From NCBI GenBank assembly GCA_964498285.1, contig CAZCGN010000001.1, positions 175,916-239,915 of the forward strand: a stretch of 64,000 nt of DNA, given 5' to 3'. The stretch's first letter is position 1; each line of letters opens with the position of its first letter. Source of the stretch: an uncultured Methanosarcinales archaeon (GTDB lineage Archaea; Nanobdellota; Nanobdellia; Woesearchaeales; GW2011-AR9). The notes beneath the pieces are model-generated. The model had not been told where the DNA came from. It worked only from the letters and a program-made list of their open reading frames with translations, and searched no databases. Below, piece after piece: positions 43,985 through 62,650 of this stretch. A program made the translations under genes and the position numbers.

Positions 43985-44280
43985 CAATGAGGAAGTTATG
44001 CTTAAGAGATAAGATTGTAGACTTTGTTTATACTGGAGCATAAAGGTTTGCAACAGAAACACTTTCTCCTGCGATATACGAGAGAAGAAATAACAGGAGT
44101 AATATCACTAATGGAGTTATCCACCATGCTTTTCGTACCTTAAGAAAATTCCAGGCCTTTTTTAGAAAAGAGGGATTTGAGTTTTCTGCTGCTGACATGG
44201 GAGAAAAGGAAAGTGAAAATTATTTAAATCTTTCTTTTAAACAGATAGCTTTTTAAAGAAGATCTCCCGTTGTCTAATTC

Positions 44281-44517
44281 ATGGATAAGGTAGATTTCAT
44301 AGAGTTTTGTGCGGAATTTTGGCAAATAGATAGGTCTGAGATCAGAGATGAAATGCAGCTTGATGATACAAATTTACCAAATAACAGCTCAATTAGATTC
44401 TACCAGTTCATAGCCATGCTCGAAGCCAAATTTGGTCTTCATGTACAAAACATCAACTCAATATCGACTTTTGGGGATTTGTACTTAGATCTTACAAAAT
44501 CCAGAGAACATTTATAA
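44281..44517 (+). CDS. Small carrier-protein-like protein (possible acyl/peptidyl carrier)
   Basis: 78 aa, four-helix-bundle-like pattern with a candidate Ser in NNSSIRFYQFIAMLE. Immediately upstream of acpS. Confidence 0.35.
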   Translation: MDKVDFIEFCAEFWQIDRSEIRDEMQLDDTNLPNNSSIRFYQFIAMLEAKFGLHVQNINSISTFGDLYLDLTKSREHL

Positions 44518-44541
44518 TTCTTTGTAAGTTTTGGGAACTCA

Positions 44542-44874
44542 ATGGTCCAAGGCATAGGAGTGGATATAGAAGAGATTGCACGTTTTAAAGAATCATATAA
44601 AGATGAACATTTTATCAACTTAGTTTTTACCCCTCGTGAAATTGCGTACTGTCAGAAGAAGAAAGAACCGTATATTAGTTTTGCAGGAAAATTTTGTGCC
44701 AAAGAAGCCGTAATTAAAGCAAGCAGCAAACCCCTTAGTGTTAAACAAATAGAGATTATAAATGAAAAAGATGGACAACCCACTGTCTTTATTAACGGGA
44801 TTAAAGAACCCTTCATTTCCTGTAGTATTTCGCACACAAAAGATAACGCCATAGCCTTTGTCATTATGAAATAA
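44542..44874 (+). CDS. acpS: Holo-ACP synthase (4'-phosphopantetheinyl transferase, AcpS type)
   Basis: GIGVDIEEIARF, FTPREIAYC, AGKFCAKEAVIKA and ISHTKDNAIAFV match AcpS signature blocks. 110 aa. Confidence 0.75.
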   Translation: MVQGIGVDIEEIARFKESYKDEHFINLVFTPREIAYCQKKKEPYISFAGKFCAKEAVIKASSKPLSVKQIEIINEKDGQPTVFINGIKEPFISCSISHTKDNAIAFVIMK

Positions 44875-44876
44875 AA

Positions 44877-45506
44877 ATGGAAGAGACGATTAGCAAGAAA
44901 CATAATTATTCCCAAGGTACCACCAGTTCTATTACAGTTCAGATTAAAAGTAGTAATATCCAAAAGGTAATTGAAAAGTTTAGAGAAGAAGAAAAACTGA
45001 ACATTAGTCCTGGAGATATAATTACCCATGCTGCTGGTCAGGCTTTACTAGATTTTCCTGAGTTTAATTCATCCTTTGCTAAGAAAGGAGAGCCATATCC
45101 TGATGTAAACATAGGCTATGCCATTAACCTTGGGCACGGACCAAAAACAGTTGTCATAAAAAGTGTTGCAAACAAATCTATTATTGAAGTTGCAAGTGAA
45201 GTTAAAAAATTGGCAGTAAAATATATTCGAAAAGAACTCTCAGAGGAAGATATGAATGGAGGGACTTTTTCTATATCGAACCTGTCTTCATTTGGAGTCC
45301 ACACAATGAACACCCCTACATTTGAGGATCAGTCCGCGTTACTTTCAATAAATTCAGAATATGACTCTATTGAATTCATTAAAGAAAGACCAATTCCAAT
45401 AAAACTATTTAACCTCTCACTCTCTTTTGATTTCCGTGTAGCAAACTGCCAACAAGCAGCTCAATTTTTAAAAAAAATTAAACATTTGCTTGAGAAATGT
45501 GACTAA
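44877..45506 (+). CDS. CAT / 2-oxoacid-dehydrogenase-E2-like acyltransferase fold protein
   Basis: C-terminal LSLSFDFRVANCQQAAQFL resembles the E2 DHRxxDG catalytic block, with Phe in place of the catalytic His. Confidence 0.35.
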   Translation: MEETISKKHNYSQGTTSSITVQIKSSNIQKVIEKFREEEKLNISPGDIITHAAGQALLDFPEFNSSFAKKGEPYPDVNIGYAINLGHGPKTVVIKSVANKSIIEVASEVKKLAVKYIRKELSEEDMNGGTFSISNLSSFGVHTMNTPTFEDQSALLSINSEYDSIEFIKERPIPIKLFNLSLSFDFRVANCQQAAQFLKKIKHLLEKCD

Positions 45507-45946
45507 CTTTTCAATTCCATAGTTTTATCTTCGAGAACGGTTACTTTGGCATTTCCATCAACAACAACTTCACCATTACAAATGATTTCTGTTTCCATAA
45601 TAATAACTCTTACACTATCAATCTTATCTTTAACTTTTCCCCGTATTAAAAGGGTAGAATTCGGATAGACTGGTTTTTTGAAATTTAGCTGTTGTGTTAA
45701 ACAAAGACATTTCTCACCTGGGCAAAGCATTCCAAAAAGAGTTGAAAAGTAGCTTGAAAGATGCAATCCGTGTGCAATAATTCCGTTAAACTGGGTCTTT
45801 TTGGCAAATGCTTCATCACAATGAAGGGGTTGCTTATTTCCCGTCAAAGAAATAAAATCATCAATACTCTCTTTTGTAAGAAGCTGAGTAAACTCAAACA
45901 CAGAACCAATTTTAATTTCCTCATAACTAAAACAGTTTGCATCCAT
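45503..45946 (-). CDS. MaoC-like hot-dog fold dehydratase
   Basis: 147 aa. Hot-dog core with GKVKDKIDSVRVIIMETEIICNGEVVVDG pattern. Confidence 0.55.
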   Translation of the reverse strand: MDANCFSYEEIKIGSVFEFTQLLTKESIDDFISLTGNKQPLHCDEAFAKKTQFNGIIAHGLHLSSYFSTLFGMLCPGEKCLCLTQQLNFKKPVYPNSTLLIRGKVKDKIDSVRVIIMETEIICNGEVVVDGNAKVTVLEDKTMELKS

Positions 45947-45949
45947 CTT

Positions 45950-46438
45950 TTATGTATTTTCACCTAAAGCCCCATGTTTTTTGAGAGCTTCTTTGATTTG
46001 GCCATATGTTCTAAGTTGCATAACTTCCTGTGTTGTAAACCTAACATTGAATGCTTTTTCTAAATCAGAAAAGAGCATCATACCTGCAAATGAATCATTT
46101 GATGTGAGCAAATCGCTGTTCAGACCTGCTTTAAGATCCTTTGTATCGATATTAAGATTTTTTTGAAGTATCTCCTGAAGTTTCTCTTCAGGAGTTTCCT
46201 TTTTCAACACTATCTGCTTACTTTGAAGAATTGTAATAATTTGTTCAACGTTGTTGAGTCGTAATATCTCTTCTTCTCTAAACGTAATGAGAAAAGATTT
46301 TTCAAGTTCAGCAATGATCTTAAAGTGGGCAAGAGAATCCCATCCTTCAACATTAAGCATTGAAGAATCAAGAGTGATTTTTGCTTGATCCAGACCTAAT
46401 GCTTGAGCCACAACTTCTTTAACTTTCTCATCAATCAT
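45950..46438 (-). CDS. Tandem (didomain) acyl carrier protein
   Basis: First domain has canonical LNVEGWDSLAHFKIIAELEKSF (DSL phosphopantetheine site). Second domain has TSNDSFAGMMLFSDLEKAF. Confidence 0.55.
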   Translation of the reverse strand: MIDEKVKEVVAQALGLDQAKITLDSSMLNVEGWDSLAHFKIIAELEKSFLITFREEEILRLNNVEQIITILQSKQIVLKKETPEEKLQEILQKNLNIDTKDLKAGLNSDLLTSNDSFAGMMLFSDLEKAFNVRFTTQEVMQLRTYGQIKEALKKHGALGENT

Positions 46439-46468
46439 TTTTTGCTCCCTCTAGCCAAATGGAGTTAT

Positions 46469-49276
46469 TTACTTTATATATTTGTCTGTATAATATGCTC
46501 GCAATTTTCGATAGAGTATCTTTTTTGTCGGCCCTTTGGGGATATTATCTAAATCTTCAAGTGTATTAATTATGATTATTTCTTTTGGTTGCTTGTATCC
46601 TGCAAGCTTTCCTGACAAAAAATCTATTAACTCTTCTTTTGTTGTAGAGCCATTTTCATGCAGCTTCACAAAAGCGCAAACTTCTTCTCCAAGTAGAGGG
46701 TGAGGAATCCCAATCACTGCGCATTCAGAAACACTATTATGTTTGAACAAAACATTCTCAACCTCACTTGGATAAATGTTCTCTCCCCCCTTAATGATCA
46801 AGAAATCTTTACGTGTCTTAAAGTAGATATAACCATCTTCATCTTTGTATCCAAAATCTCCACTACGAAACCAGCCATCTCTAAAATTCTGTTTGTTCTT
46901 CTCTTCAAGGTCAAAATATTCGTTCACAACATTCAAGCCGCGAATACAAATCTCTCCTTCTTGATGAGGTTGGAGTTCACAATCATTTTCATCACGTATA
47001 GTAATTCTATTAATAGGAAATTCTCTTCCAACTGATCCTTCTTTCCGCTTTTCTTTTGGATAATTGTTAAAACAAGCAAACGATGTTGTTTCTGTAAGAC
47101 CATAGCCTTCAAAAATTGGAACACTGAATCTTTCTTCAAATTTTCGTTGCACTTCTCTTGTAAGTACTTGCCCCCCACAGATTATCCCCCGCATTGATGT
47201 GTCTTTCCGCTCAATTGGCATACTAAGTAATATTGATAAAATTGAGGGCATAACACTTGTCCAGTTAACATTGTACTTATCAACAACAGACCAAAATGCA
47301 AGTAAGCTTGCCTTTCCTTGGATAATTACTGTTGACCCACCTGAATAAAGAGGTGTGAGAAGAGTTATCACCTGCCCATTGTTGTGAAATAACGGAAGAA
47401 TACAAAGTGTTCTTGTGGTTTTAGTAAAATGAAACCACTCAGAGATCACTTTGGCATCAGAAAGAAGGTTAAGATGAGTTAGCACTGCTCCTTTAGGATT
47501 TCCAGTGGTACCCGAAGTATAAATAATAACTGCTTCATCAGTAAGGTTTACCTTTGGAAAAGTGGATCTCACCTCCAAGATAGAATCATCCAAATCCCTC
47601 TCTTTAAGATTGCGAATCTCTGTTGCAGGACAAATCTCGACTTCTGATGAGACTTGACCTTTCAGTTCCTCAATTTTGGTTTTCAGTGATGAATCATAGA
47701 AAACTGTCTTGGATCTTGATTGGGTGATAATATAAGCCATTTCAGGCGCAGAAAGAGCTGGGTTAATTGGAACAACAGTTATGCCTAAGCGCAAAGCTGC
47801 AAAGTAAAGTAAAACAAATTCAGGAGAGTTTGGAATTATCAGGTTTATTCGCTCACCTTTGGAAACCTTTTTCTCTAAAAGATAATTTGCAACTTTTAGC
47901 AACATGTAATCAAACTCTTGATATGAAAATGATTCATTCATTCCTGGGAAAAAGGCAAAGGTTTTGTCTGGATCTTCTTGCACTTTTGCAGAAAATAGTT
48001 CATACACATTGTTATACTCAATTGGAAATGGCTCTCCTAACTTTTGGTGATCAAAAAGTTGCTCATCTTCCACAAGTATTGATGCTTCTTGTAGGGCAGG
48101 TTTTTCTAAGTATTGTTCTACAACATCCATTATATCTTGTAGAGTAGTCATCTTTAGAGAATCTCGAAACTTTATCTCGATACCAAACTTTTTTTCTACT
48201 GCAGAGAGGAGTTGAATATGTTTTAAAGAGTCCCACTCAAGATATTTTTCCATTGAGATATTCTCTTCATCTAATGAAAGATTGAGTACTTGCTCAAACA
48301 CTTCCTTAAGCCCTTCTCTAATTAAACTGTTAACCGAACTTTGTTTTGTGTTTGTATTAAAATGGCCTATAATATTTTGTGCCGCAAGTTGTGCCATATT
48401 ATGCCTGCATTCCTTTGTTGCAGTTCCAATGTGAGGAATTACAATACAATTCGGAAGATTACAAATAGGATGATTACCAGAAATTGGCTCAGGATCTGTA
48501 ACATCTAAACATGCCCCACGAACTTGCCCACTTTTTAAGGCAGCATAAAGATGATCAGTGTTTACGACTCCTCCACGAGCCATGTTAAGAAGGATAGGTT
48601 TTCTCGCCATTTTATTAAATGCAATTTGATCAATCAAGCCTTTTGTTTCTTCAGATAAAGGAACGTGTAAAGAAATATAATCTGAATGCGCAAGTAAGTA
48701 GTCCAGATCAACTTGTTTTACAGGAGGATCTTCTGAATCTACTTTTGAACGGTTGTGATATATTACATTAAGATCAAACCCCCGAGCTCGCTGGGCGACA
48801 GCTTTCCCTATTTTTCCAAAACCAATTATCCCAAAAGTCTTTCCACTCAACTCTTCTCCTAAGAACAGTTCTGGATCCCATGATTTCCAATTATCACTCC
48901 TGACAAATTCCTGTGCCAAAGATACTTGCCGTATTAGTTGCAAGAGAAGAGCAAAAGTCATATCCGCAGTGCTATTAGTTACAACGTTCGGCGTGTTATA
49001 AATAAAGATCCCTCTCTTTTTTGCATATTCCAAATCAATGTTGTCAAGACCTACTGCAAAATTTGAGATTACTTGAAGGTTGTTTTTAAGATCAAGAATC
49101 TCGGGAGTAAACTTTTCAGTAACTGAAGAGAGAATGCCATCATAACTGGAGACAACTTCTTTAAGTTTTTCTACAGAAAGAGGAGCATTATCATAACTTT
49201 CGTCCACGTGAAAATGTGCAGAGAGAATCTCTCTTGCAACCTTAGGCAACCTTCTTGTGATAAATATCTTTTTCAT
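46469..49276 (-). CDS. Tridomain enzyme: D-isomer 2-hydroxyacid dehydrogenase - carrier protein - AMP-binding adenylation domain
   Basis: The N-terminal ~310 aa form a D-isomer 2-hydroxyacid dehydrogenase domain (NAD-binding GKTFGIIGFGKIGKAV, catalytic His/Glu/Arg pattern). The middle ~70 aa are a carrier domain (EKYLEWDSLKHIQLLSAVEKKFG). The C-terminal ~530 aa are an adenylation domain (IIYTSGTTGNPKGAVLTH, YGLTETT, YFKTRKDFLIIKGGENIYPSEVE). 935 aa. Confidence 0.7.
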   Translation of the reverse strand: MKKIFITRRLPKVAREILSAHFHVDESYDNAPLSVEKLKEVVSSYDGILSSVTEKFTPEILDLKNNLQVISNFAVGLDNIDLEYAKKRGIFIYNTPNVVTNSTADMTFALLLQLIRQVSLAQEFVRSDNWKSWDPELFLGEELSGKTFGIIGFGKIGKAVAQRARGFDLNVIYHNRSKVDSEDPPVKQVDLDYLLAHSDYISLHVPLSEETKGLIDQIAFNKMARKPILLNMARGGVVNTDHLYAALKSGQVRGACLDVTDPEPISGNHPICNLPNCIVIPHIGTATKECRHNMAQLAAQNIIGHFNTNTKQSSVNSLIREGLKEVFEQVLNLSLDEENISMEKYLEWDSLKHIQLLSAVEKKFGIEIKFRDSLKMTTLQDIMDVVEQYLEKPALQEASILVEDEQLFDHQKLGEPFPIEYNNVYELFSAKVQEDPDKTFAFFPGMNESFSYQEFDYMLLKVANYLLEKKVSKGERINLIIPNSPEFVLLYFAALRLGITVVPINPALSAPEMAYIITQSRSKTVFYDSSLKTKIEELKGQVSSEVEICPATEIRNLKERDLDDSILEVRSTFPKVNLTDEAVIIYTSGTTGNPKGAVLTHLNLLSDAKVISEWFHFTKTTRTLCILPLFHNNGQVITLLTPLYSGGSTVIIQGKASLLAFWSVVDKYNVNWTSVMPSILSILLSMPIERKDTSMRGIICGGQVLTREVQRKFEERFSVPIFEGYGLTETTSFACFNNYPKEKRKEGSVGREFPINRITIRDENDCELQPHQEGEICIRGLNVVNEYFDLEEKNKQNFRDGWFRSGDFGYKDEDGYIYFKTRKDFLIIKGGENIYPSEVENVLFKHNSVSECAVIGIPHPLLGEEVCAFVKLHENGSTTKEELIDFLSGKLAGYKQPKEIIIINTLEDLDNIPKGPTKKILYRKLRAYYTDKYIK

Positions 49277-49303
49277 ATTTTTATATGCATTAGTCCTTCT
49301 TGT

Positions 49304-50611
49304 TTAGAGATCATTTGTGTAGTTAACTTCTGAAGATCTCTCCATTGAGGAAGTATTTGGAAGCGTTTCTTTTTTTCTTCTCAAATATTCGCCGACTTTC
49401 TTCATCCCTTGTTCTATAACTTCCAAATTATTGACTAATGGTCCAAAAGACACTCGTACTGCACCTGATAGAGTCCTACCAAAACCCCAACCTGGTACAA
49501 AAAGAACTGCAGATTCCTTAAGCACTTCTTCAACAAATTTTGCCCCATCATCACCAACTTTAATACAAGTATATAAACCACCTTTAGGTGTGAGTGCTGG
49601 AAGACCGATATATTCTTTGATTGCTTTAACTGTATGTTCGCCTGCTCGCCTATATTGTTCACTAATTTGTTTTGTATACGATCTTAAAGTGTTATTTTCT
49701 ATTGCATCGTTGAGATACTTTGTTAAAGCCATCTGATGAAGATTGTCGGGACAAAGAATGGATGACCCTTGAATTGATTCTAATGCGTGAACAATTTCAC
49801 TACTTGCCTCAATCCATCCTAACCGTCTTCCAAGACTTCTGCTCCACTTGGAGTTTGAATGAATTGTTAAGAAATGATCATCTGGTTTCCAGGAAAAGTA
49901 TTCTGGAAGATTTTCATCAAAGACCATATCCTTATACGCAAAATCAACAATGAGAAAACTTCCAACCTCCTTTACTGCTCTGAGGGCTGATGCAACAAAA
50001 TCATCTGACAAGACTTGTGAGGTTGGATTATCAGGCGAGACTAATAACACTACTTTTGGTCGTTCCTGAAGAATAAAATCATAAAACTCTTGGCATCGTC
50101 GATCCGCAACGTACTCCCATCGCTCAGTATCAATAACAGGAAAGCGTACAACTTCAACGTCTAAAGCAGTCGTTACCTGCGAAGGAAGATTACAATAACT
50201 TGGATCAAGAAGCGCCACTTTATCACCAGGGTTTAACAATACTTGCATAAGGTTAAAGGTAAGTTGAGTTGAACTCGCACCAATTGCTATATGCTGTGGC
50301 TCAAGCCCCAGGGTGCCATACAAATGGCTTTCATACCGAATAATGGCCTTTTTGCACTCAGGACTTCCAAGCGTTGCAGAATAACCACCGGACATGTGAA
50401 AACTTGCCTCATTTGAAACTATTTCTTGGTATGCTTTTTGTAATAATGATGGAGCTTTGTGATTAACCCACCCCCCGGCAAATGAGATAACTTCTGATGC
50501 TTCAACCCCTATTTTTTTAAAGTACGCTGGATCTGCATAGTCCATAATTTGCCTAATTGGAGAGATTGTTCTCCGAAAACTAAGTGATTTATCTGATAAC
50601 ATTGGTTTCAT
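49304..50611 (-). CDS. Class I/II PLP-dependent aminotransferase
   Basis: SNSKWSRSLGRRLGW (PLP-lysine region) and fold-type-I spacing. 435 aa. Confidence 0.7.
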   Translation of the reverse strand: MKPMLSDKSLSFRRTISPIRQIMDYADPAYFKKIGVEASEVISFAGGWVNHKAPSLLQKAYQEIVSNEASFHMSGGYSATLGSPECKKAIIRYESHLYGTLGLEPQHIAIGASSTQLTFNLMQVLLNPGDKVALLDPSYCNLPSQVTTALDVEVVRFPVIDTERWEYVADRRCQEFYDFILQERPKVVLLVSPDNPTSQVLSDDFVASALRAVKEVGSFLIVDFAYKDMVFDENLPEYFSWKPDDHFLTIHSNSKWSRSLGRRLGWIEASSEIVHALESIQGSSILCPDNLHQMALTKYLNDAIENNTLRSYTKQISEQYRRAGEHTVKAIKEYIGLPALTPKGGLYTCIKVGDDGAKFVEEVLKESAVLFVPGWGFGRTLSGAVRVSFGPLVNNLEVIEQGMKKVGEYLRRKKETLPNTSSMERSSEVNYTNDL

Positions 50612-50649
50612 TCTAGTATACCTCTTGTCGTGATTATTTTGTGATCATT

Positions 50650-51402
50650 TTATACGACCATCCCCCCGTCAATAACGAGAACCTGGCCTGTAACATAGCT
50701 TGACATTGCAGTTGCTAAGAACAGTGCACCTTTTGCAATCTCTTCTGGTTTTGCAATTCTTCGTAGTGAAGTTCTACTAACAAGTTTTTCCACGCGAGCC
50801 TTATCTAACGCATCTAGCATGTCTGTTTGAGTCAATCCTGGTGCTAGAGCATTTACTCGTATGCCCACCTCTCCCAACTCTTTTGCCGCAGCTTTTGTAA
50901 GCCCTATTACTCCTGCTTTACTTGAACAATACGGGGTTTGGCCCGCGTTTCCATAAATCCCAACCGAAGAAGTAACATTTATGATCCTGCCTCCATTTGG
51001 ATTGCTCATCATAAGTTTAGTTGCTTCATGCAAACAGTTATATGTTCCTTTTAAGTTAACATTCAAAATAGCATCCCAATCCTGCTCCTCTGTTTTTACA
51101 ATAAGATTATCTTTTAAGATTCCCGCATTATTAACAAGAACATCTATTTTGCCAAATTTTTCTTTGATCGTACGAAACATTTCAGCAACTTCATAAGAAT
51201 TACTTACATCTGCCTTAACCAAAAGCACTGTTGCTCCAATTTGTATGATCTCTTCTGCGGTTCTTTGTGCCTCAATATGATTCTTCAAATAATTTACTAT
51301 AACCATAGCTCCTTGCTTTGCAAACTCTAAAGCTATCGCTCGTCCAATTCCCCGACTTGCCCCAGTTACTAGGGCCACTTCCCCACGCATAAGGTCGATC
51401 AT
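50650..51402 (-). CDS. fabG: SDR-family 3-oxoacyl-(ACP) reductase (FabG-like)
   Basis: TGASRGIGRAIA, NNAG, and the YCSSKAG catalytic tetrad region. Confidence 0.8.
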   Translation of the reverse strand: MIDLMRGEVALVTGASRGIGRAIALEFAKQGAMVIVNYLKNHIEAQRTAEEIIQIGATVLLVKADVSNSYEVAEMFRTIKEKFGKIDVLVNNAGILKDNLIVKTEEQDWDAILNVNLKGTYNCLHEATKLMMSNPNGGRIINVTSSVGIYGNAGQTPYCSSKAGVIGLTKAAAKELGEVGIRVNALAPGLTQTDMLDALDKARVEKLVSRTSLRRIAKPEEIAKGALFLATAMSSYVTGQVLVIDGGMVV

Positions 51403-51491
51403 TTATAAACCTCTTCTGGTTGCATCAGGAGTATAAATAGATTATGGTCTTAGGGAACAGCAATCATCATGGGGGAAATCTACGAGGAGAA

Positions 51492-52415
51492 TTAGGGAGA
51501 CTTATGCTTGAGAATGCATGCATAATTTATTGGGGTTTTTTTATCTTCGGGTTTCTTTGCTGAAAATACATTTAAAACAAGTTCTTTTTCAATATCAAAA
51601 AATTCTTCAAGCATGTCCCGTACCTCTTGAGCTGATTTGAAAAGATAAATATGGTCTATTGCAGCAGCCCAAACTGCAGTTGTAAGGAAAAGTGTACCGC
51701 CCTTTTTAAGAAGCCCTTTGAGCTTTTTGAGAAGTGCTTTTGGATCTTCGAGATGTTCAAGTAATTCTCCACAAACTACCTTATCATATTGGCCTTCACT
51801 AGGAATATCAAAAATATTCTCTTTATGAATCATAGCCTTAATTCCATTATACTCTAAGACCTTTTTGCTAAACGTAACAGAGCTTGCACTAATATCATAT
51901 CCTTCAGCAACCCATTGTGGATTAGATCTCATAAACTCCGAAATAAACACTCCTGAGCCCACTGGAACCTCAATTATCTTGCCATTAGGAGAAAAAGGAG
52001 CTGAAAATTCCTTTAGAAAAAAAAGGAGCATCTTGTGATGGTTTATCCATAATGCCTGTGAAAGAAGAAGACCATTAAGATACCTTGTTTCCATAACTAA
52101 AGGATTATCATATACCTTTTCTTGGGCTTGTGAATAAGAGGAAAAAAGATATTTCCCCGTTTTTTCAAGTTCAATTTGCAATCGCAAAAACTCCATAGAA
52201 TATTCAATAAAATCTTTGATTGCTTTCGTGTACCTCTCCAAACTTTGGTTACAAAGAGCAAACATAGTTTGACACATCTTCTCGCCAAGCTCTCTGTCAT
52301 ATTTTGGATCAAGCAGTTTATCAGGAATACTCCTTGTTACAGGAGACTGCTTGAGTTGATCAAGAGTGTATGCAAATAGATCATCTGGTTTTGTATCGCC
52401 CATTGTTTCATTCAA
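51492..52415 (-). CDS. Class I SAM-dependent methyltransferase
   Basis: Motif I IIEVPVGSGVF and post-I acidic residue. 307 aa. Confidence 0.6.
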   Translation of the reverse strand: MNETMGDTKPDDLFAYTLDQLKQSPVTRSIPDKLLDPKYDRELGEKMCQTMFALCNQSLERYTKAIKDFIEYSMEFLRLQIELEKTGKYLFSSYSQAQEKVYDNPLVMETRYLNGLLLSQALWINHHKMLLFFLKEFSAPFSPNGKIIEVPVGSGVFISEFMRSNPQWVAEGYDISASSVTFSKKVLEYNGIKAMIHKENIFDIPSEGQYDKVVCGELLEHLEDPKALLKKLKGLLKKGGTLFLTTAVWAAAIDHIYLFKSAQEVRDMLEEFFDIEKELVLNVFSAKKPEDKKTPINYACILKHKSP

Positions 52416-53520
52416 TTAGATATTCTTCTTTTATTAATTCTCCCAACAAAGCTGCATAAACTTGATTCCCGTCAGCATTAAAATGACCATCAAAATTCCA
52501 ATGCATTTGAGTCGCTCGAGGGTGCTCTATTAAATCTTGAGTTGGATCAAAAAAATCAAGTCCTAAACGTTGTGTAATAATCGTATAGATTTCCTGAGCT
52601 ATCCTTGGGTTAAGATTTGCTTCATCCAAGTTATAACTCTCACTGATCACATCCAATCGTTCAGGATTTATTTGGTATGGTGGTGGAAGAAAAAGTACCA
52701 GAAGAGGGATATCTTGAGCTTGGGCTGATTTTTTCATCTCTGCAAGATTTTGGTATGTGCTATGGATACTATCTTGTATTGCAGGTGTGTTTCTTCCCTG
52801 CAGGAGAGCAAGATCAAAAGCATTAGAATTCCTCCCATGCCTATTAATTCCTAAGGTAGTAATTAATGTATGGCCAAGTGGCGTTGTTTTTGCTTTCCAA
52901 TAGAGGTGATTTATAAACTTGGAGTTCTCGTATACCCAAAGAGTAAAGGATTTTCTTTGTTGGGTACTACTTCTTTTATCAAATAGATTTGTTGCATACA
53001 AATTGCCGAGTCCTACTTCTACAACAATTAAATCAGGATTATATTTTGGTGCATACTCCTGGAGAATATAATTCATTTCACCAAGTCCACTACCCCCAAG
53101 GCCCAAATTTATAACTTCAACTCCTCCCATGGAAGATTCAAGAATACTAGGATATGTTTGTTCAAGATCAACCGTGTTGCCAAATACTGAAGATGACCCA
53201 ATTATTGCAATTCTATAAACTCCCTCTTCCTTTTGCAGGCTATGAAAGTCACGAAAACCTAAATGGTTTGTATTAATTGTGTATGAAAATTCTGAGGTGG
53301 ATTTTGTAAAGTTCGTCAAATTCACATAAACATTCTTCTTCAGTTCAGGAACAAATTGAGCATTTTCTTTTGGCCAAAGTCCTGGTGCCACTTCATCACT
53401 TTTAAATACGCGTACTCCTGCTTCCCCTGCTGCTAGACAAAGTAAGAGGACAACAAACAAAACAAGAAAGTTTATTCCTAAGTTGCGTAACTTTTTTTGA
53501 GTGTTCTTTGAAGGAGACAT
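52408..53520 (-). CDS. Membrane-anchored SGNH-hydrolase-like protein (AlgX/AlgJ/DltD-like O-acyltransferase candidate)
   Basis: N-terminal TM helix, then IAIIGSSSVFGN and GLGGSGLGE blocks consistent with an SGNH fold. Confidence 0.4.
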   Translation of the reverse strand: MSPSKNTQKKLRNLGINFLVLFVVLLLCLAAGEAGVRVFKSDEVAPGLWPKENAQFVPELKKNVYVNLTNFTKSTSEFSYTINTNHLGFRDFHSLQKEEGVYRIAIIGSSSVFGNTVDLEQTYPSILESSMGGVEVINLGLGGSGLGEMNYILQEYAPKYNPDLIVVEVGLGNLYATNLFDKRSSTQQRKSFTLWVYENSKFINHLYWKAKTTPLGHTLITTLGINRHGRNSNAFDLALLQGRNTPAIQDSIHSTYQNLAEMKKSAQAQDIPLLVLFLPPPYQINPERLDVISESYNLDEANLNPRIAQEIYTIITQRLGLDFFDPTQDLIEHPRATQMHWNFDGHFNADGNQVYAALLGELIKEEYLIE

Positions 53521-53649
53521 TTGCTTGAAATTTTCGAAGTATGTAGATATATAAAGATTTAGGAACGGTGAATTTGTTAACTTCCCAGGTAGCTATTTAC
53601 TACTCCCAAAAGCTAAATATTTTTAAACACTCAACTTGCTTAAAACCTC

Positions 53650-54630
53650 ATGGGGGAGAAAAAGTTCTATCTTCTAGTACCAATCATAGCATTAGTTATA
53701 AGCACCATCATATATGTCTCCTTTGCAAGTTCTTTTAATAGTCTTGGGCCAGAAAGTTCCAGGTTTCAGACCATACTACACGAATATGATACACTTCCTG
53801 CCGAAAGCCTCTTATTTTTGGGAGATAGTCAAATCCAAGATGGAATTGATTGTAATTTAATAGACCAAATAGTTGAAGAAAAATGTTTCAACTTTGGATT
53901 AGCAGGCTTGGTACCGGTCCAATTAGCTCTTCAAAAAGAGTTGATTATCTCAAGTAGTCCAAAGACAGTTGTTATTGGAACTTCCGCTGCATTCTATGAT
54001 GAATCTATGAATAAAAATGATGATCTATTTATGGTTATGAGCCAGTTCAAAAAAATCTCATATGATGCATTTCTTCTAACAAAGGTTACCGAACAAGAAA
54101 AAAAACTCTTAACAATGAACATCTTTCAAAGGTCTCTTTATAAGCGAAAATTCATTCTCCCTTTCTATACATCACTCTTTAAGCAAGTGTTCTTCTCGCA
54201 AGAAGTATACCCAAACATAATCAACAATTTTAAAAATCCACATTTCTTTATTCACCAACAACCTATTGAGACATTAATCTCGAAACTTGAAGATCCAAAC
54301 ATCACACAAATTTTTGAAATTGAAAAATCTCAGAAACGAGAACGAGAAGCGTTTCATTATCTCATTGCAGAGATGAAAAAAGAAGGAATCCACGTTGTCG
54401 TGATCCATATGCCAACGCACCCTTTAGTTTGGCAAACTGTTCCCTCTTCATCGCAGGAAACATTTCAGCAATATCTTGAAGAGCTCTCAGATGTCCTCAA
54501 CTTTACGTTAATAAACACTCAAGAAGATTTTCTCCCAGAACATTTTACAGATCTAACTCACCTTAACAGGGCTGGTTCAGAACATTTATCCAAAAAAATT
54601 GTAGAAGGTGAGTATAATATTATTCAATAG
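53650..54630 (+). CDS. DltD-like membrane-anchored SGNH-fold protein
   Basis: N-terminal TM anchor and LFLGDSQIQDGID (GDS block). Size and topology as DltD/AlgJ. Overlaps the MBOAT start by 23 nt. Confidence 0.5.
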   Translation: MGEKKFYLLVPIIALVISTIIYVSFASSFNSLGPESSRFQTILHEYDTLPAESLLFLGDSQIQDGIDCNLIDQIVEEKCFNFGLAGLVPVQLALQKELIISSSPKTVVIGTSAAFYDESMNKNDDLFMVMSQFKKISYDAFLLTKVTEQEKKLLTMNIFQRSLYKRKFILPFYTSLFKQVFFSQEVYPNIINNFKNPHFFIHQQPIETLISKLEDPNITQIFEIEKSQKREREAFHYLIAEMKKEGIHVVVIHMPTHPLVWQTVPSSSQETFQQYLEELSDVLNFTLINTQEDFLPEHFTDLTHLNRAGSEHLSKKIVEGEYNIIQ

Positions 54631-56068
54631 TCTTGCTTTTCTCTATTTTGGACTTGTTATTCTCCTCTTTTTACTCATTGTTCAACATAAAAAATGGCAG
54701 TATCTTTTCTTACTTGCTGCAAGCTATTTTTTTTATGCATATTCTAGCGGATACTTGTTTCTGTTGTTACTCTTCTCATCAGTCTTAGATTTTTACTGTG
54801 GGAGATCTATTTCTAACTCGACAAAAAAAAGAACACGTAACCTGTTTCTTACGTTAAGTTTAGTGGGGAATATTGGTGTTCTTGCATTTTTCAAGTATAC
54901 TGATTTTGCTATAACAACAGTAAATAGTGTTGCGGGATTTTTTGGATATTCAACTTCAATTCCTCTCTTGCATCTTGTTCTACCAATTGGAATTTCCTTT
55001 TTCACATTTCAAACAATGAGTTATACTCTTGATATTTATATGAACAAACTTAAACCAACTTCTTCCTTCCTCAATTTTGCCCTCTACGTTTCCTTTTTCC
55101 CTCAACTCGTTGCAGGACCAATTGTACGAGCAGCAGATTTCCTTCCACAGCTTAGTAAGAAAATTGTTGTAACAAAGGAAAATTTCATGCAGGGACTTAC
55201 CCTCGTTATGTGGGGCCTTGTTAAAAAAATCGTTATTGCAGATAATATTGCACTTTTCGTAAATTCTTTTTATGCTGATCCTACAGCGATCCCTGGAAGT
55301 CTTCCCATTATCCTTGCTGCAATCGCTTTTACAATCCAAGTATATTGTGATTTTTCAGGATACTCCGATATTGCAATCGGACTTGCACGCATAATGGGCT
55401 TTCATTTTAATTTAAACTTTGATAAACCGTTCTTCTCACAATCTATTGCTGAATTTTGGAAAAGATGGCACATCTCCCTTTCAACATGGTTTAGGGACTA
55501 TCTTTTTACTCCGATTATGGGAAAACGTTTCACACTCAAAAAACTGTATGCAAGTGTATTTTTCGTCTATTTAGTGAGTGGCCTTTGGCATGGAGCTGGA
55601 TGGAATTTTGTTGCATGGGGCGCTCTTCATGGCACATTTCTGGTTATTTCTATGGTAAGTAGTCAGTGGAGAAACAAGTTCAACAAAAAGATTGGACTCC
55701 TTAAAGTTCCCAAATTTCACAGAGTATTGCGTACTGCCTGGACTTTATATTTAGTTGTTTTCTCTCTTCTGCTCTTTAGATTGTATGATGCTCGTTTTAT
55801 TTGGTATGCTGCAAAGAAATTCCTCATTCTTGATTTTAGTGAATTTACATCGCAGGTCATACAAGTTGCATCAGCATATGAAACTTCACTATTAATTATG
55901 GGCATCTTTGTTATTATTCATACAATCACGTACTTCAAAAAAGATACAATTTCACACATTGCACAAAAGGGATATTTTGAGTGGACAATGTATCTTATAG
56001 GAATGATCTTACTTTTGTACTTCCTTGCTCCAAGCGAGTCCATACAGTTTATCTATTTCCAATTCTAA
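54608..56068 (+). CDS. MBOAT-family membrane-bound O-acyltransferase (DltB/AlgI-like)
   Basis: Polytopic, with conserved FWKRWHISLSTWFRDYLFTPI block (catalytic His) and upstream QTMSYTLDIY region typical of DltB/AlgI. Confidence 0.8.
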   Translation: MSIILFNSLAFLYFGLVILLFLLIVQHKKWQYLFLLAASYFFYAYSSGYLFLLLLFSSVLDFYCGRSISNSTKKRTRNLFLTLSLVGNIGVLAFFKYTDFAITTVNSVAGFFGYSTSIPLLHLVLPIGISFFTFQTMSYTLDIYMNKLKPTSSFLNFALYVSFFPQLVAGPIVRAADFLPQLSKKIVVTKENFMQGLTLVMWGLVKKIVIADNIALFVNSFYADPTAIPGSLPIILAAIAFTIQVYCDFSGYSDIAIGLARIMGFHFNLNFDKPFFSQSIAEFWKRWHISLSTWFRDYLFTPIMGKRFTLKKLYASVFFVYLVSGLWHGAGWNFVAWGALHGTFLVISMVSSQWRNKFNKKIGLLKVPKFHRVLRTAWTLYLVVFSLLLFRLYDARFIWYAAKKFLILDFSEFTSQVIQVASAYETSLLIMGIFVIIHTITYFKKDTISHIAQKGYFEWTMYLIGMILLLYFLAPSESIQFIYFQF

Positions 56069-56118
56069 GATTCGATCTTTAACAATCTTTTTAAGGTGTC
56101 CATCTCAAGGAATTTTCT

Positions 56119-56865
56119 ATGAGTTCAAAGACCAGAAAAGATCTCTCAAATCTTACCAACAAGCAACTTCGTGCGAAGGGACGTAAAAAATGTTGGAGTG
56201 TATCACAAAAATTCTGGCTTGAAGTGTCCCTTTTCATTGCAGCGCCTCTTGCACGCACCCGTATTACACCTAACATTATCTCAATTTCGTGGATTTTCGT
56301 GCAACTAATCGCCGCGGCATTATTTATATTCGGCAGTTATTCGCTCAACCTTATTGCTATTATTCTCTTCAACTTTGTTGCCTACATTGGAGACCACCTT
56401 GATGGCAACGTTGCACGCATGAAAGAACAGTATAGTAACCTTGGCCCATACTTAGAACAACTTGCAATCTTTTTTGGAACACCCCTTATATTCCTTGGCC
56501 TTGCATTTGGGAACTTCTCACAGAATGCAAATGCAACATTTTTAGTGCTAAGTCTTCTGGGTGTACTCTTTTGGTTGTTTGAAAAGCTTATTCGAATTAA
56601 CCCGGTTTGGTTTAATGAGGAAAAACAAAAAGAGTTAGTATCAATTTATCGAAAAAAAGTCTCGTTTCGAACACAAAAGGGTTGGAAAAAATATTTCATT
56701 GAGTTTACCAGAAGAGGACAACCATTTAATTTACTCTTCTTTTTAGTGCTCTTTAATTTTGCGCAAGCGGCAGCTCTTATTTACTCCGGACTCTTTGCTG
56801 CAGAATTCGTGCGAAAGCTGACTGCAACTGTACTTAACCTCAAGAAATCAGACGCACATGGCTAA
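56119..56865 (+). CDS. CDP-alcohol phosphatidyltransferase family protein
   Basis: YIGDHLDGNVARMK contains D-G-x2-A-R of the CDP-OH_P_transf signature. Multiple TM helices. Confidence 0.6.
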   Translation: MSSKTRKDLSNLTNKQLRAKGRKKCWSVSQKFWLEVSLFIAAPLARTRITPNIISISWIFVQLIAAALFIFGSYSLNLIAIILFNFVAYIGDHLDGNVARMKEQYSNLGPYLEQLAIFFGTPLIFLGLAFGNFSQNANATFLVLSLLGVLFWLFEKLIRINPVWFNEEKQKELVSIYRKKVSFRTQKGWKKYFIEFTRRGQPFNLLFFLVLFNFAQAAALIYSGLFAAEFVRKLTATVLNLKKSDAHG

Positions 56866-58321
56866 AAAGAAAATAACCGTAAGCAAGGAATCAGCAAGCG
56901 CAGGTGTTGTATACCTCATCTTTTCACAACTCTCGCTTATTCTCTCAAACTATGGAATTCATATTGGTCTTGCCCACTTTGTGGGTGAAGCAACCTATGG
57001 TCTCTTTGGTGTTCTGATGTCTCTTTATCTTATCAACAGAGCACTTTTGAATACTGGACTTCCACGAGCAGTCTCGAAATTTGTAGCTGAGGGGAGATAC
57101 AGGTTTGAAGAAGTATTCTACACTTCACGAAAACTCCAGTATGCTCTAAGTTTCCTTTTTGCAGGAGCATACATTCTCTTTGCAAAACAAATTGCTTCCT
57201 TACTAAAAGATCCCACACTTACACCATACATAGTATACCTTGGATTTATAGTAATACCTCTCTCATTACTCGCGCTCTATAGCAGTGGATTTCTCAATGG
57301 TCTTAGACTATTCCGTAAGCAAGCAATTGTAAAGATTATATATCCCTTACTTCGCGTTTTGTTCACGCTTATATTTGTTCTGCTGGGGTTTAATTTGTAT
57401 GGTGTGCTTACTGGATATCTTTGTGGGATAGTCGGAGGCCTTTTTCTTGCCAAATTGTTCCTTCCACTCAGAAAAGTTGAAAAACCAAAAAAAAACGTGT
57501 TTACATCCTCAAAAGTGCTCAGCTTTTCTCTCTATATATCAGCAGCCTCACTTATTCTAACACTTCTTCGAAATGTGAATGTACTTTTTATCAAATCTAT
57601 GCTTGAAGATAATATTGCAACCGCCCTTTTTACAGCAGCTTCCACTATCGCAAATGTGCCACTAGTGGTATTTGGAGCTCTTCCCTTCGTGCTTCTCCCA
57701 TCCATTTCCAAAAGTATTGCAAAAAAAAACGTTGCAGCAACCAAAAAGTATATTCAAGAATCCCTTCGTTATCTCTTACTTTTATTACTTCCAATTGTTG
57801 TGCTCATTACAGCTACAGCACCTGAAATCCTTACTCTTCTCTACCCTTCAACTTATATTGCTGCTGCTTCTACTTTGAGTATTTTAGCTATCGCATCAAT
57901 TTTTTTAGCATTTTTAACAACTCTTTCATCAATCCTTGTTGGTGCAGGTAAAGCAAAAGAGCAGCTAATGTTTGTTGGTGTTGGCTTAATCATATTGGTA
58001 GGGGCAAACTTCTTTCTTGTTCCACTCTATGGAATTATTGGTGCTGCCCTCTCCTTACTTATCTCATCTTTTATTGCTGTAAGTCTTGCATATCTGTATA
58101 TTTACAAAAAATTTGGAGCAACTATATCGCTTCTTTCTACTGTGCGGATCTTTACCGCATGTGCAGGCATATTCTTCATCGTGTGGAATTGGCATAACTC
58201 AGGCTTCCAGTTAATTTTAGAATATGCTCTTTTAGGAGGCCTATACTTTCTTCTCCTCTTTTTTCTCAAAGAGATTGGAATTACAGAGTGGAAGCTGGTT
58301 AAAAAAGTTGTCAAAAGATGA
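56858..58321 (+). CDS. MOP-superfamily polysaccharide/oligosaccharide flippase (Wzx/MATE-like)
   Basis: 487 aa with about 14 TM helices, polysaccharide-biosynthesis-protein-like topology. Overlaps the previous gene. Confidence 0.65.
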   Translation: MAKKKITVSKESASAGVVYLIFSQLSLILSNYGIHIGLAHFVGEATYGLFGVLMSLYLINRALLNTGLPRAVSKFVAEGRYRFEEVFYTSRKLQYALSFLFAGAYILFAKQIASLLKDPTLTPYIVYLGFIVIPLSLLALYSSGFLNGLRLFRKQAIVKIIYPLLRVLFTLIFVLLGFNLYGVLTGYLCGIVGGLFLAKLFLPLRKVEKPKKNVFTSSKVLSFSLYISAASLILTLLRNVNVLFIKSMLEDNIATALFTAASTIANVPLVVFGALPFVLLPSISKSIAKKNVAATKKYIQESLRYLLLLLLPIVVLITATAPEILTLLYPSTYIAAASTLSILAIASIFLAFLTTLSSILVGAGKAKEQLMFVGVGLIILVGANFFLVPLYGIIGAALSLLISSFIAVSLAYLYIYKKFGATISLLSTVRIFTACAGIFFIVWNWHNSGFQLILEYALLGGLYFLLLFFLKEIGITEWKLVKKVVKR

Positions 58322-61816: not shown

Positions 61817-61874
61817 ACATTTTTAAAATTTTTATTTTTTATATGTAAAATACGTAGATAAAAGAGAAAACAAA

Positions 61875-62648: not shown

Positions 62649-62650
62649 TC

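Follow-up and report, generated by a model that had tools for sequence, protein, structure and literature searches.

Genes of the locus

We analysed a 64,000-nucleotide stretch of archaeal DNA (contig CAZCGN010000001.1; hereafter the window), in which a cluster of genes encodes a membrane-bound O-acyltransferase (MBOAT), two SGNH proteins, phosphopantetheinyl carrier domains and enzymes of acyl activation. The open reading frames (ORFs) named in an earlier note on this DNA are all real at their coordinates, and Pfam and NCBIfam profile searches place them in the families it had given. Marker genes (a thermosome at 718 bits, Rad50, HerA and a family-B DNA polymerase, PolB) show the contig to be archaeal, and a 5S rRNA and tRNA-His are also encoded in the window. 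The closest named homologues of the cluster proteins are found in metagenome-assembled genomes (MAGs) of Nanoarchaeota, Woesearchaeota and Aenigmarchaeota, and one Nanoarchaeota MAG contig (L001) is syntenic with the window. Judged from these genes, the host is a DPANN archaeon, Woesearchaeota/Nanoarchaeota-like, and the region is predicted to be part of a surface-glycan locus. Two sequencing runs and one NCBI genome gave identical DNA in independent assemblies, so the gene arrangement is not an assembly artefact.

The genes are packed into three tight operons. On the plus strand, the first consists of the genes for a small carrier protein (CP78), AcpS and an E2-like protein. The minus-strand operon runs from the gene of a 370-amino-acid (aa) SGNH protein through those of a methyltransferase, a FabG-like reductase, an aminotransferase, a tri-domain fusion protein and a double acyl carrier protein (ACP) to that of a MaoC-type enzyme; its first two genes overlap by 8 nt, the methyltransferase start lying within the end of the SGNH gene, and an extracytoplasmic SGNH gene (52408-53520) heads an operon that holds the cytoplasmic activation genes. 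The second plus-strand operon comprises the genes for a DltD-like protein, the MBOAT, a CDP-alcohol transferase, a flippase, an unknown ORF, a cytidylyltransferase/phosphoenolpyruvate (PEP) mutase fusion and PhnDCE, with the MBOAT start overlapping the preceding DltD-like gene by 23 nt.

The MBOAT and its SGNH partners

Bacterial MBOAT-SGNH systems fall into two classes (PMC12148441). In the first, DltB passes D-alanine from the carrier protein DltC to a tyrosine in the C-terminal FxYxxF of a separate microprotein, DltX. In the second, comprising PatA, AlgI, WssH and all non-DltB systems, the hexapeptide is fused to the MBOAT C-terminus on two extra helices and the donors are acyl-CoAs; these systems have been described without a DltC-like carrier protein and without a DltX-like membrane microprotein (PMC12148441).

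The MBOAT of the window (54608-56068, plus strand; 486 aa; Pfam MBOAT, E 4e-26) bears the motifs RWHISLSTWFRDY and GLWHG, and its catalytic-histidine motifs (RWHISLS..FRDY and GLWHG) align to the catalytic region of DltB. A sequence search of the PDB returned DltB only (8jem, E 3e-29; 6bug, E 3e-27), with matches that cover residues 126-401 only, and the NCBIfam DltB model TIGR04091 gave 165 bits against a cut-off of 375. By these matches the enzyme belongs to the bacterial DltB/AlgI polymer-acylating group, as had been proposed earlier, rather than to a lipid-remodelling clade. About 85 residues, ending in FIYFQF, lie C-terminal to the DltB-aligned region, and hydrophobic segments beginning at about residues 417 and 461 mark two extra helices; the C-terminal FxYxxF is present in 119 of the 120 best MBOAT homologues. 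A catalytic His combined with an FxYxxF fused on a further pair of transmembrane (TM) helices defines PatA and AlgI, whereas DltB has no C-terminal shuttle and relies on a separate DltX (PMC12148441). In its predicted architecture, the MBOAT of the window is of the PatA/AlgI type and not of the DltB type. Six contigs carrying an MBOAT at least 59% identical (the window, L001, L003, L004, L005 and L048) were treated as its clade.

Overlapping the MBOAT gene is that of an N-terminally anchored DltD-like SGNH protein (53650-54630, plus strand; 326 aa), assigned to the Pfam family LB_356 in precomputed annotation and without a match in our local Pfam library. Its identity was assigned from conserved SGNH blocks, from an AlphaFold model with fold searches, and from a 46%-identical homologue that scores above the Pfam DltD threshold. 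A profile of its family returned nothing significant from PDB sequences (best E 1.5), fold comparison alone giving matches. It shares with DltD the N-terminal anchor, the extracytoplasmic SGNH domain and the Ser-Asp-His triad. The second SGNH/GDSL protein (52408-53520, minus strand; 370 aa), also N-terminally anchored, matches Pfam Lipase_GDSL_2 (E 2.5e-7) at 31.8 bits, just under the gathering threshold (GA) of 32.9, and ALGX weakly. It has the residues of blocks I, II and V, with invariant G108-x-S110, G140, D163 and H346, in register with the alignment of the DltD-like family; a single-sequence structure model (pLDDT, the predicted local distance difference test, of 37) was too poor for use. 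In each of the two proteins a single TM helix at the N-terminus follows Lys/Arg residues, an arrangement that should place the catalytic domain on the outside. Homologues of the 370-aa protein lie beside an MBOAT without carriers in L015 and L049, and we predict it to be a second transferase or esterase. The extracytoplasmic SGNH transferase that partners an MBOAT is found here twice. Of the earlier SGNH assignments, the blocks have held up in both proteins.

A carrier-protein activation cassette

The tri-domain protein (46469-49276, minus strand; 935 aa) joins 2-Hacid_dh (residues 1-316, E 1e-57), PP-binding (322-384, E 1.4e-5) and AMP-binding (429-907, E 8e-85) domains. Its dehydrogenase domain is of the D-2-hydroxyacid type and closest to archaeal glyoxylate/hydroxypyruvate reductases (5aov, E 4e-72), and its carrier domain contains EWDSL. 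The adenylating domain, spanning residues 429-935, is of the acyl-CoA-synthetase type: its closest matches are oxalate-CoA ligase (5ie0, E 6e-73), FadD13 and malonyl-CoA synthetase, and its best model is one of acyl-CoA ligases (PRK06187, 397 bits). Where amino-acid-adenylating enzymes have FDxS, the ligase reads PLFHNNG and the amino-group-binding Asp is absent, unlike in DltA, a stand-alone, D-alanine-specific enzyme of the amino-acid-adenylation type, in which the Asp of FDxS holds the alpha-amino group.

A metagenome scan with the fusion protein gave 32 loci (L016-L047), and gene content was counted in the 15 of at least 6 kb. One of these, L033, encodes the dehydrogenase, carrier and ligase as three separate genes. 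The invariant partner of the tri-domain protein is a class I/II pyridoxal-phosphate-dependent, aspartate-aminotransferase-like enzyme (49304-50611, minus strand; Pfam Aminotran_1_2, E 1.2e-33; best PDB match the Thermus aspartate aminotransferase, E 3e-25), whose gene immediately precedes that of the fusion in 14 of the 15 metagenomic loci. As examples of the cassette, with its genes separate or fused, we note L017 (8738-12799) and L033 (8766-12727); its recurrent neighbours are genes for NeuB, DegT, a CMP-synthetase, NAT and O-methyltransferases.

Four carrier domains with a conserved Ser are encoded in the window, and none reaches a DltC model. The tandem ACP (45950-46438, minus strand) matches Pfam PP-binding in two stretches (E 8e-15) and keeps the Ser in both halves (GWDSL, SNDSF). 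CP78 (44281-44517, plus strand; 78 aa) bears the motif LPNNSSIRFYQF; it has no Pfam match and matches NCBIfam ACP weakly (8.4e-5). In an alignment with 10 other carriers its Ser falls on their phosphopantetheine Ser, and its gene always adjoins ACPS, with homologues beside ACPS in L001, L003, L005 and L048, so that its earlier designation as a small carrier is supported by the serine and the neighbouring gene. That neighbour encodes an AcpS-type 4'-phosphopantetheinyl transferase (44542-44874, plus strand; Pfam ACPS, E 2e-18; TIGR00556 78.8 bits against a cut-off of 45).

The third protein of this operon is a stand-alone homologue of the catalytic domain of 2-oxoacid dehydrogenase acyltransferases, or E2 (44877-45506, plus strand; Pfam 2-oxoacid_dh, E 2.4e-35). 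Alignment to the E2 structure 3mae showed SFDFRVANCQ in place of the E2 motif DHRxxDG, with Phe at the position of the His. Phe, Pro or Val takes the place of the catalytic His across the family. None of the five homologues has the His, and all keep D185, V188, A189, C191 and Q192; an invariant Cys and Gln replace the final Asp-Gly of the motif. The earlier reading of this protein as an E2/CAT-like acyltransferase was set aside because the catalytic His is absent from the window protein and from every homologue; its function could be that of an adaptor or of a Cys-dependent transacylase. It co-occurs with CP78 and always accompanies carriers and AcpS. Further copies of the subfamily lie in L001 (13248-13886), L003 (4591-5202), L005 (7519-8526, fused to AcpS) and L017 (12832-13455).

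Three further enzymes could tailor an acyl group. The last gene of the minus-strand operon encodes a MaoC-type (R)-specific hydratase/dehydratase of the hot-dog fold (45503-45946, minus strand; Pfam MaoC_dehydratas, E 4.5e-17), a domain that is fused to an Antibiotic_NAT N-acyltransferase in L017. A FabG-like 3-oxoacyl-ACP reductase of the short-chain dehydrogenase/reductase family (50650-51402, minus strand; Pfam adh_short_C2, E 9e-67) scores 285 bits on TIGR01830, whose cut-off is 298. The class I S-adenosylmethionine-dependent methyltransferase (51492-52415, minus strand; Pfam Methyltransf_23, E 1e-13), with an N-terminal extension of ~130 aa, is 49-64% identical in L001-L005, where its gene always adjoins the adenylating gene; in L048 a 309-aa methyltransferase is encoded beside the SGNH gene. 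The stop/start overlap between the SGNH and methyltransferase genes is conserved in L001, L003, L005 and L048, that is, in five loci with the window.

Carriers beside the MBOAT in sister loci

AcpS, carriers and an adenylating enzyme adjoin the MBOAT/SGNH genes in all six clade contigs, in varying gene order. The carrier/adenylation neighbourhood that the earlier note described is thus conserved in related archaeal genomes, and the clustering of carriers with the MBOAT is not a matter of chance.

Four of the sister contigs (L003, L004, L005 and L048) encode a stand-alone amino-acid-type adenylating enzyme, with the FDxS Asp present as HFDLS or HFDIS in all four. In L003-L005 this enzyme scores 390 bits on TIGR01733 (cut-off 317) and 334-358 bits on DltA models, below their cut-off. 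A small carrier ORF follows it: in L048 this is a PP-binding protein of 95 aa, in L003-L005 a weakly DltC-like one (24-36 bits, where the cut-off is 68). DltC-like small ORFs are confined to the sister loci. The set in L004 consists of a DltA-like enzyme, a DltC-like carrier, AcpS, a methyltransferase, two SGNH proteins and the MBOAT, and within the ±10 kb inspected there is no called acyltransferase besides the MBOAT. We take the four sisters to be predicted four-part Dlt-like sets on a PatA/AlgI-type MBOAT.

In the window and in L001, the DltA/DltC-like pair is replaced by the aminotransferase and the tri-domain protein, which take up the same place, flanked by the E2-like/AcpS genes on one side and the methyltransferase-SGNH gene pair on the other. 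Since a plain aminoacyl set in the sisters and the cassette of the window stand on the same scaffold, the activation cassette looks exchangeable, with an aminoacyl group predicted in the sisters and a hydroxyacyl group here. A hydroxyacyl rather than an aminoacyl group is favoured because the DltA-like enzymes of the sisters have the FDxS Asp and pass the amino-acid model, and the ligase of the window does not.

A candidate acyl-shuttle microprotein

Between the glycosyltransferase and small carrier genes lies an ORF absent from the earlier note, encoding a DUF5989 membrane microprotein of 56 aa (44028-44198, minus strand; Pfam DUF5989 35.1 bits, cut-off 27). Pfam gives the function of this family as unknown, and the literature searched yielded no relevant mention of it. 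Its N-terminus is rich in K/R, and a single TM helix is predicted to lead into a short tail on the outside, with NLYAPV as its last residues. The near-C-terminal Tyr is invariant in five DUF5989 homologues from the loci; the tail reads x[LIV]YAP[VI] in the clade of the window, and the copies of L008 (6108-6236, minus strand) and L050 (727-888, minus strand) end in FIYALF. A search of 1.84 billion representative proteins showed a C-terminal end of exactly FxYxxF in 66 of 105 DUF5989 representatives, with the matches driven by the N-terminal and TM part and the tail not involved. Homologues occur in seven MBOAT loci overall, including five of the six clade contigs (in L048 at 253-393, minus strand).

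DUF5989 and DltX are different Pfam families. Owing to its DltX-like layout, the FxYxxF tails and its presence in MBOAT loci, DUF5989 nevertheless looks like a DltX-type shuttle, and we regard it as a candidate DltX-like Tyr acyl-shuttle microprotein, of which the window copy (NLYAPV) would be a divergent variant. A family without known function thus bears the hallmark C-terminal FxYxxF of acyl-shuttle peptides.

A proposed mechanism and its main alternative

We propose that the locus encodes an archaeal surface-acylation machine of MBOAT and SGNH proteins with PatA/AlgI architecture, interleaved with an exchangeable carrier-protein activation cassette. This reading, drawn from sequence, includes a coupling of carriers to the MBOAT that we infer, and we see it as evenly poised between right and wrong. 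The first module, a trans-membrane polymer-acylation machine, would consist of the MBOAT with its fused Tyr shuttle, the two anchored SGNH proteins and the DUF5989 microprotein. The second would comprise AcpS, the four carrier domains, the adenylating enzyme, the aminotransferase, the 2-hydroxyacid dehydrogenase, the FabG-like reductase, MaoC and the methyltransferase.

In such a machine, the aminotransferase would convert an amino acid to a 2-oxo acid, which the hydroxypyruvate/glyoxylate-reductase-like domain would reduce to a small D-2-hydroxy acid such as glycerate, glycolate or lactate. The oxalate/malonate-CoA-ligase-like domain would then adenylate the hydroxy acid and load it onto the in-cis carrier primed by AcpS, and the acyl group may be tailored on the carriers by the methyltransferase, FabG and MaoC. 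The acyl-phosphopantetheine arm would enter the cytoplasmic tunnel of the MBOAT, as that of DltC does in DltB, and the acyl group would pass to the shuttle Tyr outside the membrane and on to the Ser of an SGNH transferase. The end product would be an ester on the acceptor, either a lipid head group or a surface polymer, that the nearby glycosyltransferase, flippase and CDP-alcohol transferase produce.

Several observations favour the coupling of carriers and MBOAT: the carriers are present in every clade member and the cassette has been swapped in place; L004 has no alternative called acyltransferase nearby, and the window lacks an N-acyltransferase of the NAT type; the extracytoplasmic SGNH gene and the genes of cytoplasmic activation belong to one operon, conserved and with overlapping frames; and there is a shuttle Tyr motif on the MBOAT and a shuttle-like motif on DUF5989. 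CoA and carrier proteins both present the acyl group on a phosphopantetheine arm, which likewise speaks for it. More tentatively, and at rather under an even chance, we would generalise to a DPANN hybrid machine in which a PatA/AlgI-type MBOAT and DUF5989 are fed by phosphopantetheinyl carriers, not CoA. Its exchangeable cassette would supply an amino acid or a D-2-hydroxy acid, possibly O-methylated and conceivably phosphonolactate, giving ester-linked aminoacyl or hydroxyacyl groups on archaeal surface polymers.

A number of points weigh against the proposed machine. The substrate is a putative one, assigned from the identity of the nearest homologues, and the architecture of the MBOAT is that of the class that the literature ties to acyl-CoA donors without carriers (PMC12148441). 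The model does not account for FabG, MaoC, the tandem ACP, CP78 and the E2-like protein without its His, and because the six supporting contigs are from lineages related to one another, inheritance rather than selection may explain part of the synteny. Moreover, each module is found alone elsewhere. Across the 15 metagenomic cassette loci of at least 6 kb, no MBOAT, DltD-like protein or PEP mutase was detected in any, whereas NeuB homologues occur in seven and NAT-type N-acyltransferases in five. Two of them, L017 and L033, are nonulosonic-acid clusters of the pseudaminic/legionaminic-acid (Pse/Leg) type, with DegT, a CMP-sugar synthetase, NeuB, GNAT, TylF methyltransferases and a MaoC-NAT fusion. 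L002, among the closest homologues found (MaoC 73%, fusion 65-68%, methyltransferase 64% and AcpS 64% identity), has NAT, PIG-L and Epimerase_2 and no detected MBOAT. Conversely, eight archaeal loci at a greater distance (L008-L011, L014, L015, L049 and L050), which include Nitrosarchaeum and Aenigmarchaeota, have the MBOAT/SGNH pair and no detected carrier genes; a scan of a genome collection with the DltD-like profile gave seven loci only, so that taxonomic breadth is under-sampled.

Found apart, the modules can each work without the other, and it is their functional coupling that we infer. The earlier proposal of an acid built on a carrier and then moved across the membrane thus stands as regards an MBOAT/SGNH machine with carriers beside it throughout the clade; its link between the two is set against the PatA/AlgI architecture and the separate occurrence of the modules.

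The same observations suit two independent neighbouring pathways: an O-acetylation of the PatAB/AlgIJX kind, run from acetyl-CoA or a different acyl-CoA by the MBOAT, SGNH proteins and DUF5989, and a cytoplasmic attachment of a hydroxy-acyl group to a nucleotide-activated amino sugar or nonulosonic acid. We hold this account to be possible and on balance doubtful, and say the same of the product that it would imply for the carriers, a glyceroyl, glycolyl or 3-hydroxybutyryl group, possibly O-methylated, in amide or ester linkage. A fused C-terminal FxYxxF is typical of acyl-CoA users, and NeuB, a CMP-sugar synthetase (CTP_transf_3) and a 2-epimerase (Epimerase_2) are encoded ~10 kb downstream on the contig of the window. 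N-glyceroyl, N-glycolyl and N-hydroxybutyryl nonulosonic acids are known, with their genetics unsolved (PMC5378307), and sets of ACP, AMP-ligase and FabG occur in bacterial pseudaminic-acid islands (PMC7874193). However, no NAT-like or other plausible soluble acyltransferase was found in the window, where the only candidate is the E2-like protein without its catalytic His. Nor do two separate pathways sit easily with L004, in which the MBOAT is the only called acyltransferase near a DltA/DltC-like pair, with the joint operon of SGNH and activation genes in five loci, or with carriers in all six members of the MBOAT clade. The recurring cassette is a candidate for the pathway by which nonulosonic acids receive N-glyceroyl or N-glycolyl groups (possibly O-methylated).

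Two of the carrier-less loci, L049 (4504-6820) and L050 (727-7777), encode several GDSL proteins together with a carbamoyltransferase of the NodU/CmcH type and a pair of small ORFs that match no family, L050 also having DUF5989 and an ornithine-carbamoyltransferase (OTCase)-like gene; these may be an extracytoplasmic carbamoylation variant.

Neighbouring phosphonate genes

Downstream of the MBOAT lies a Fom1-like fusion of a cytidylyltransferase and a PEP mutase (CTP_transf_like and PEP_mutase; 59385-60749, plus strand), followed by a PhnD/C/E phosphonate ABC importer (60860-63451, plus strand; Pfam). The fusion is of the known Fom1 type, PF01467 with PF13714, and EDKxxxxxNS is the motif of PEP mutases (PMC6697681). 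This motif is present, as EDKVGPKRNS, and TIGR02320 gives 395 bits against a cut-off of 320, so that the PEP mutase is predicted to be genuine. No homologue of the phosphonopyruvate decarboxylase Ppd or of FrbC was found within ~15 kb of it, and the sole local candidates for pulling the mutase reaction are the aminotransferase and the dehydrogenase of the cluster. A 308-aa ORF that precedes the fusion (58369-59295, plus strand), without a Pfam or NCBIfam match and without a tblastn match in any fetched locus, could be the missing phosphonopyruvate-consuming enzyme.

These genes had suggested to the earlier note that the loaded unit derives from phosphonopyruvate, which would be reduced to phosphonolactate by the fused dehydrogenase or transaminated to phosphonoalanine, then adenylated, carrier-loaded and exported. 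We now consider this improbable. It is true that another enzyme must pull the reaction if no decarboxylase is nearby, that a PalB-type homologue of aspartate aminotransferases and the dehydrogenase VlpB are known branch-point enzymes on phosphonopyruvate (PMC8942020), that the ligase resembles enzymes for small anionic acids (oxalate, malonate), and that the mutase gene is co-directional with the MBOAT gene with short gaps. Against this, tblastn or gene listing found no PEP mutase in any of 17 other cassette loci (L001, L002 and the 15 metagenomic loci), so the general substrate of the cassette is not a phosphonate, and phosphonate loading was rejected as the principal explanation. Furthermore, the mutase has its own fused cytidylyltransferase together with a CDP-alcohol transferase and an importer, the usual self-sufficient logic of nucleotidyl activation (PMC6697681), and the sisters have a different cytidylyltransferase fusion there. 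The phosphonate genes are probably not part of the acyl pathway and would form a separate decoration pathway.

The fusion of the sisters, 963-987 aa long and downstream of the MBOAT in L003 (14825-17788, minus strand) and L004 (15738-18629, minus strand), combines a cytidylyltransferase with PPDK_N and PEP-utilizers domains. Two different PEP-related enzymes thus occur on the same cytidylyltransferase scaffold beside a CDP-alcohol transferase.

Flanking glycan genes

The cluster is preceded by genes for a UDP-glucose 6-dehydrogenase (41817-43118, plus strand; NCBIfam NDP-sugar dehydrogenase, 437 bits) and a family 2 (GT2) glycosyltransferase (43115-43984, plus strand; Pfam Glycos_transf_2, E 5e-18), which flank it in the sisters too (synteny with L001, L003 and L004). 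Directly upstream of the glycan locus is a gene for an ECF-type (extracytoplasmic function) sigma-70 factor of 186 aa (41144-41704, minus strand; Sigma70_r2, E 3.7e-15; Sigma70_r4, E 1e-11), which has no counterpart at the corresponding position of the syntenic contig L001; this archaeal sigma-70 gene is probably a bacterial acquisition.

After the MBOAT gene come those of a membrane protein of the CDP-alcohol phosphatidyltransferase family (56119-56865, plus strand; Pfam CDP-OH_P_transf, E 2e-8) and, overlapping it by 8 nt, of a Wzx/MurJ-type polysaccharide flippase (56858-58321, plus strand; Pfam Polysacc_synt, E 9e-18). Homologues of the CDP-alcohol transferase lie near the MBOAT in L003, L004, L048 and L050, and this enzyme may build a phospho- or phosphono-alcohol acceptor or head group. 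Directly after PhnE, a gene for a 518-aa radical SAM/SPASM protein (63545-64000, minus strand) runs past the end of the window (L013, 10895-12451); a Fom3-like identity was rejected for it, the protein being of the SPASM type without a B12-binding domain. Next on the contig come HxlR and helix-turn-helix (HTH) regulators, a UDP-GlcNAc 2-epimerase, the CMP-sugar synthetase and NeuB, and further on a second UDP-glucose dehydrogenase, an iron-containing alcohol dehydrogenase (Fe-ADH) and a second CDP-alcohol transferase. With glycan genes past the end of the window, the glycan locus reaches at least 10 kb beyond it.

A secreted or membrane small molecule, made in the manner of non-ribosomal peptide synthetases (NRPS) or a lipid, with the MBOAT as a lipid-remodelling acyltransferase, is very unlikely: carriers, an adenylating enzyme, FabG, MaoC and a methyltransferase do occur together in small biosynthetic gene clusters, and DPANN archaea rely on scavenged lipids, but profile searches of the window found no condensation, ketosynthase or thioesterase domain, the MBOAT matches DltB alone among solved structures, has the shuttle motif of polymer acylation and is translationally coupled to an extracytoplasmic SGNH protein, and the neighbours are glycan genes.

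Significance and comparison with known systems

No MBOAT-SGNH system in archaea, and no combination of MBOAT, SGNH protein, carrier and adenylation, was found described in the searchable literature, in agreement with the earlier impression that the combination is new to archaea. If the coupling is real, the type of donor is independent of shuttle architecture, which would break the current split of carrier protein and DltX for DltB, and acyl-CoA and a fused tail for all others; an exchange of the cytoplasmic activation cassette could then re-tune the charge and chemistry of the surface. DUF5989 would gain a function as a widespread acyl-shuttle microprotein. The locus points to an ester-type envelope decoration in DPANN archaea, whose surfaces mediate host attachment and are almost unstudied. 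The N-glyceroyl and N-glycolyl groups of nonulosonic acids have unsolved genetics, for which the cassette offers a concrete candidate.

The proposed route to the acyl group follows a logic used by depsipeptide synthetases and VanH/VanA, where an amino or 2-oxo acid is turned into a D-2-hydroxy acid by a D-isomer-specific 2-hydroxyacid dehydrogenase and then activated with ATP. The present system, in contrast, lacks a condensation domain and a ligase product, its dehydrogenase forms one protein with the carrier and ligase, and the acid is predicted to end up on a surface polymer. The phosphonate fusion resembles Fom1 (PMC6697681) in its PF01467 and PF13714 domains, its EDKxxxxxNS motif and its position near a transferase that could use a CMP-activated phosphonate; it differs in being archaeal and in having no phosphonopyruvate decarboxylase nearby.

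Nonulosonic-acid islands, such as those of Aeromonas group II (PMC7874193), similarly combine ACP, an AMP-dependent ligase, 3-oxoacyl-ACP reductase and methyltransferases in sugar loci, and cassette homologues lie inside the NeuB/DegT/CMP-synthetase clusters of L017 and L033. The Aeromonas-type islands lack an MBOAT/SGNH export machinery and make uncharacterised products; the L017/L033-type loci have a NAT that is missing from the window, which has the MBOAT instead.

With the Dlt system of Firmicutes (DltABCDX), which attaches D-alanine to teichoic acids, the locus shares an adenylating enzyme predicted to load a phosphopantetheinyl carrier, with an AcpS-type transferase alongside, an MBOAT whose only solved-structure sequence matches are DltB, and a predicted single-TM microprotein with a conserved C-terminal Tyr; the sisters add the stand-alone amino-acid-adenylating enzyme and DltC-like carrier. 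It differs in that the MBOAT has its own FxYxxF tail on two extra helices, which DltB lacks, and stays at 165 bits against the 375-bit equivalog cut-off. The ligase, furthermore, is of the acyl-CoA-synthetase type, fused to a dehydrogenase and carrier and without the amino-binding Asp; an aminotransferase, FabG, MaoC, methyltransferase, double ACP and second SGNH protein are additional; and the host is an archaeon with no teichoic acid.

PatA/PatB, AlgI/AlgJ/AlgX, WssH/WssI and PatA1/PatB1 (PMC12148441) have an MBOAT of similar length with the catalytic His and a C-terminal FxYxxF, extracytoplasmic SGNH partners (two, as here, with AlgJ and AlgX) and a setting in a polysaccharide locus. Those systems use acetyl-CoA and have been described without a carrier or DltX-like microprotein, whereas here, in an archaeal host and without an AlgF-like gene, AcpS, four carriers, an adenylating enzyme and DUF5989 are interleaved with the machine. 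The presence of carriers in six of six clade contigs and of DUF5989 in five of six argues against a plain member of the PatA/AlgI family; the locus, as predicted, mixes features of both bacterial classes, the carrier-fed MBOAT and the MBOAT with a fused tail.

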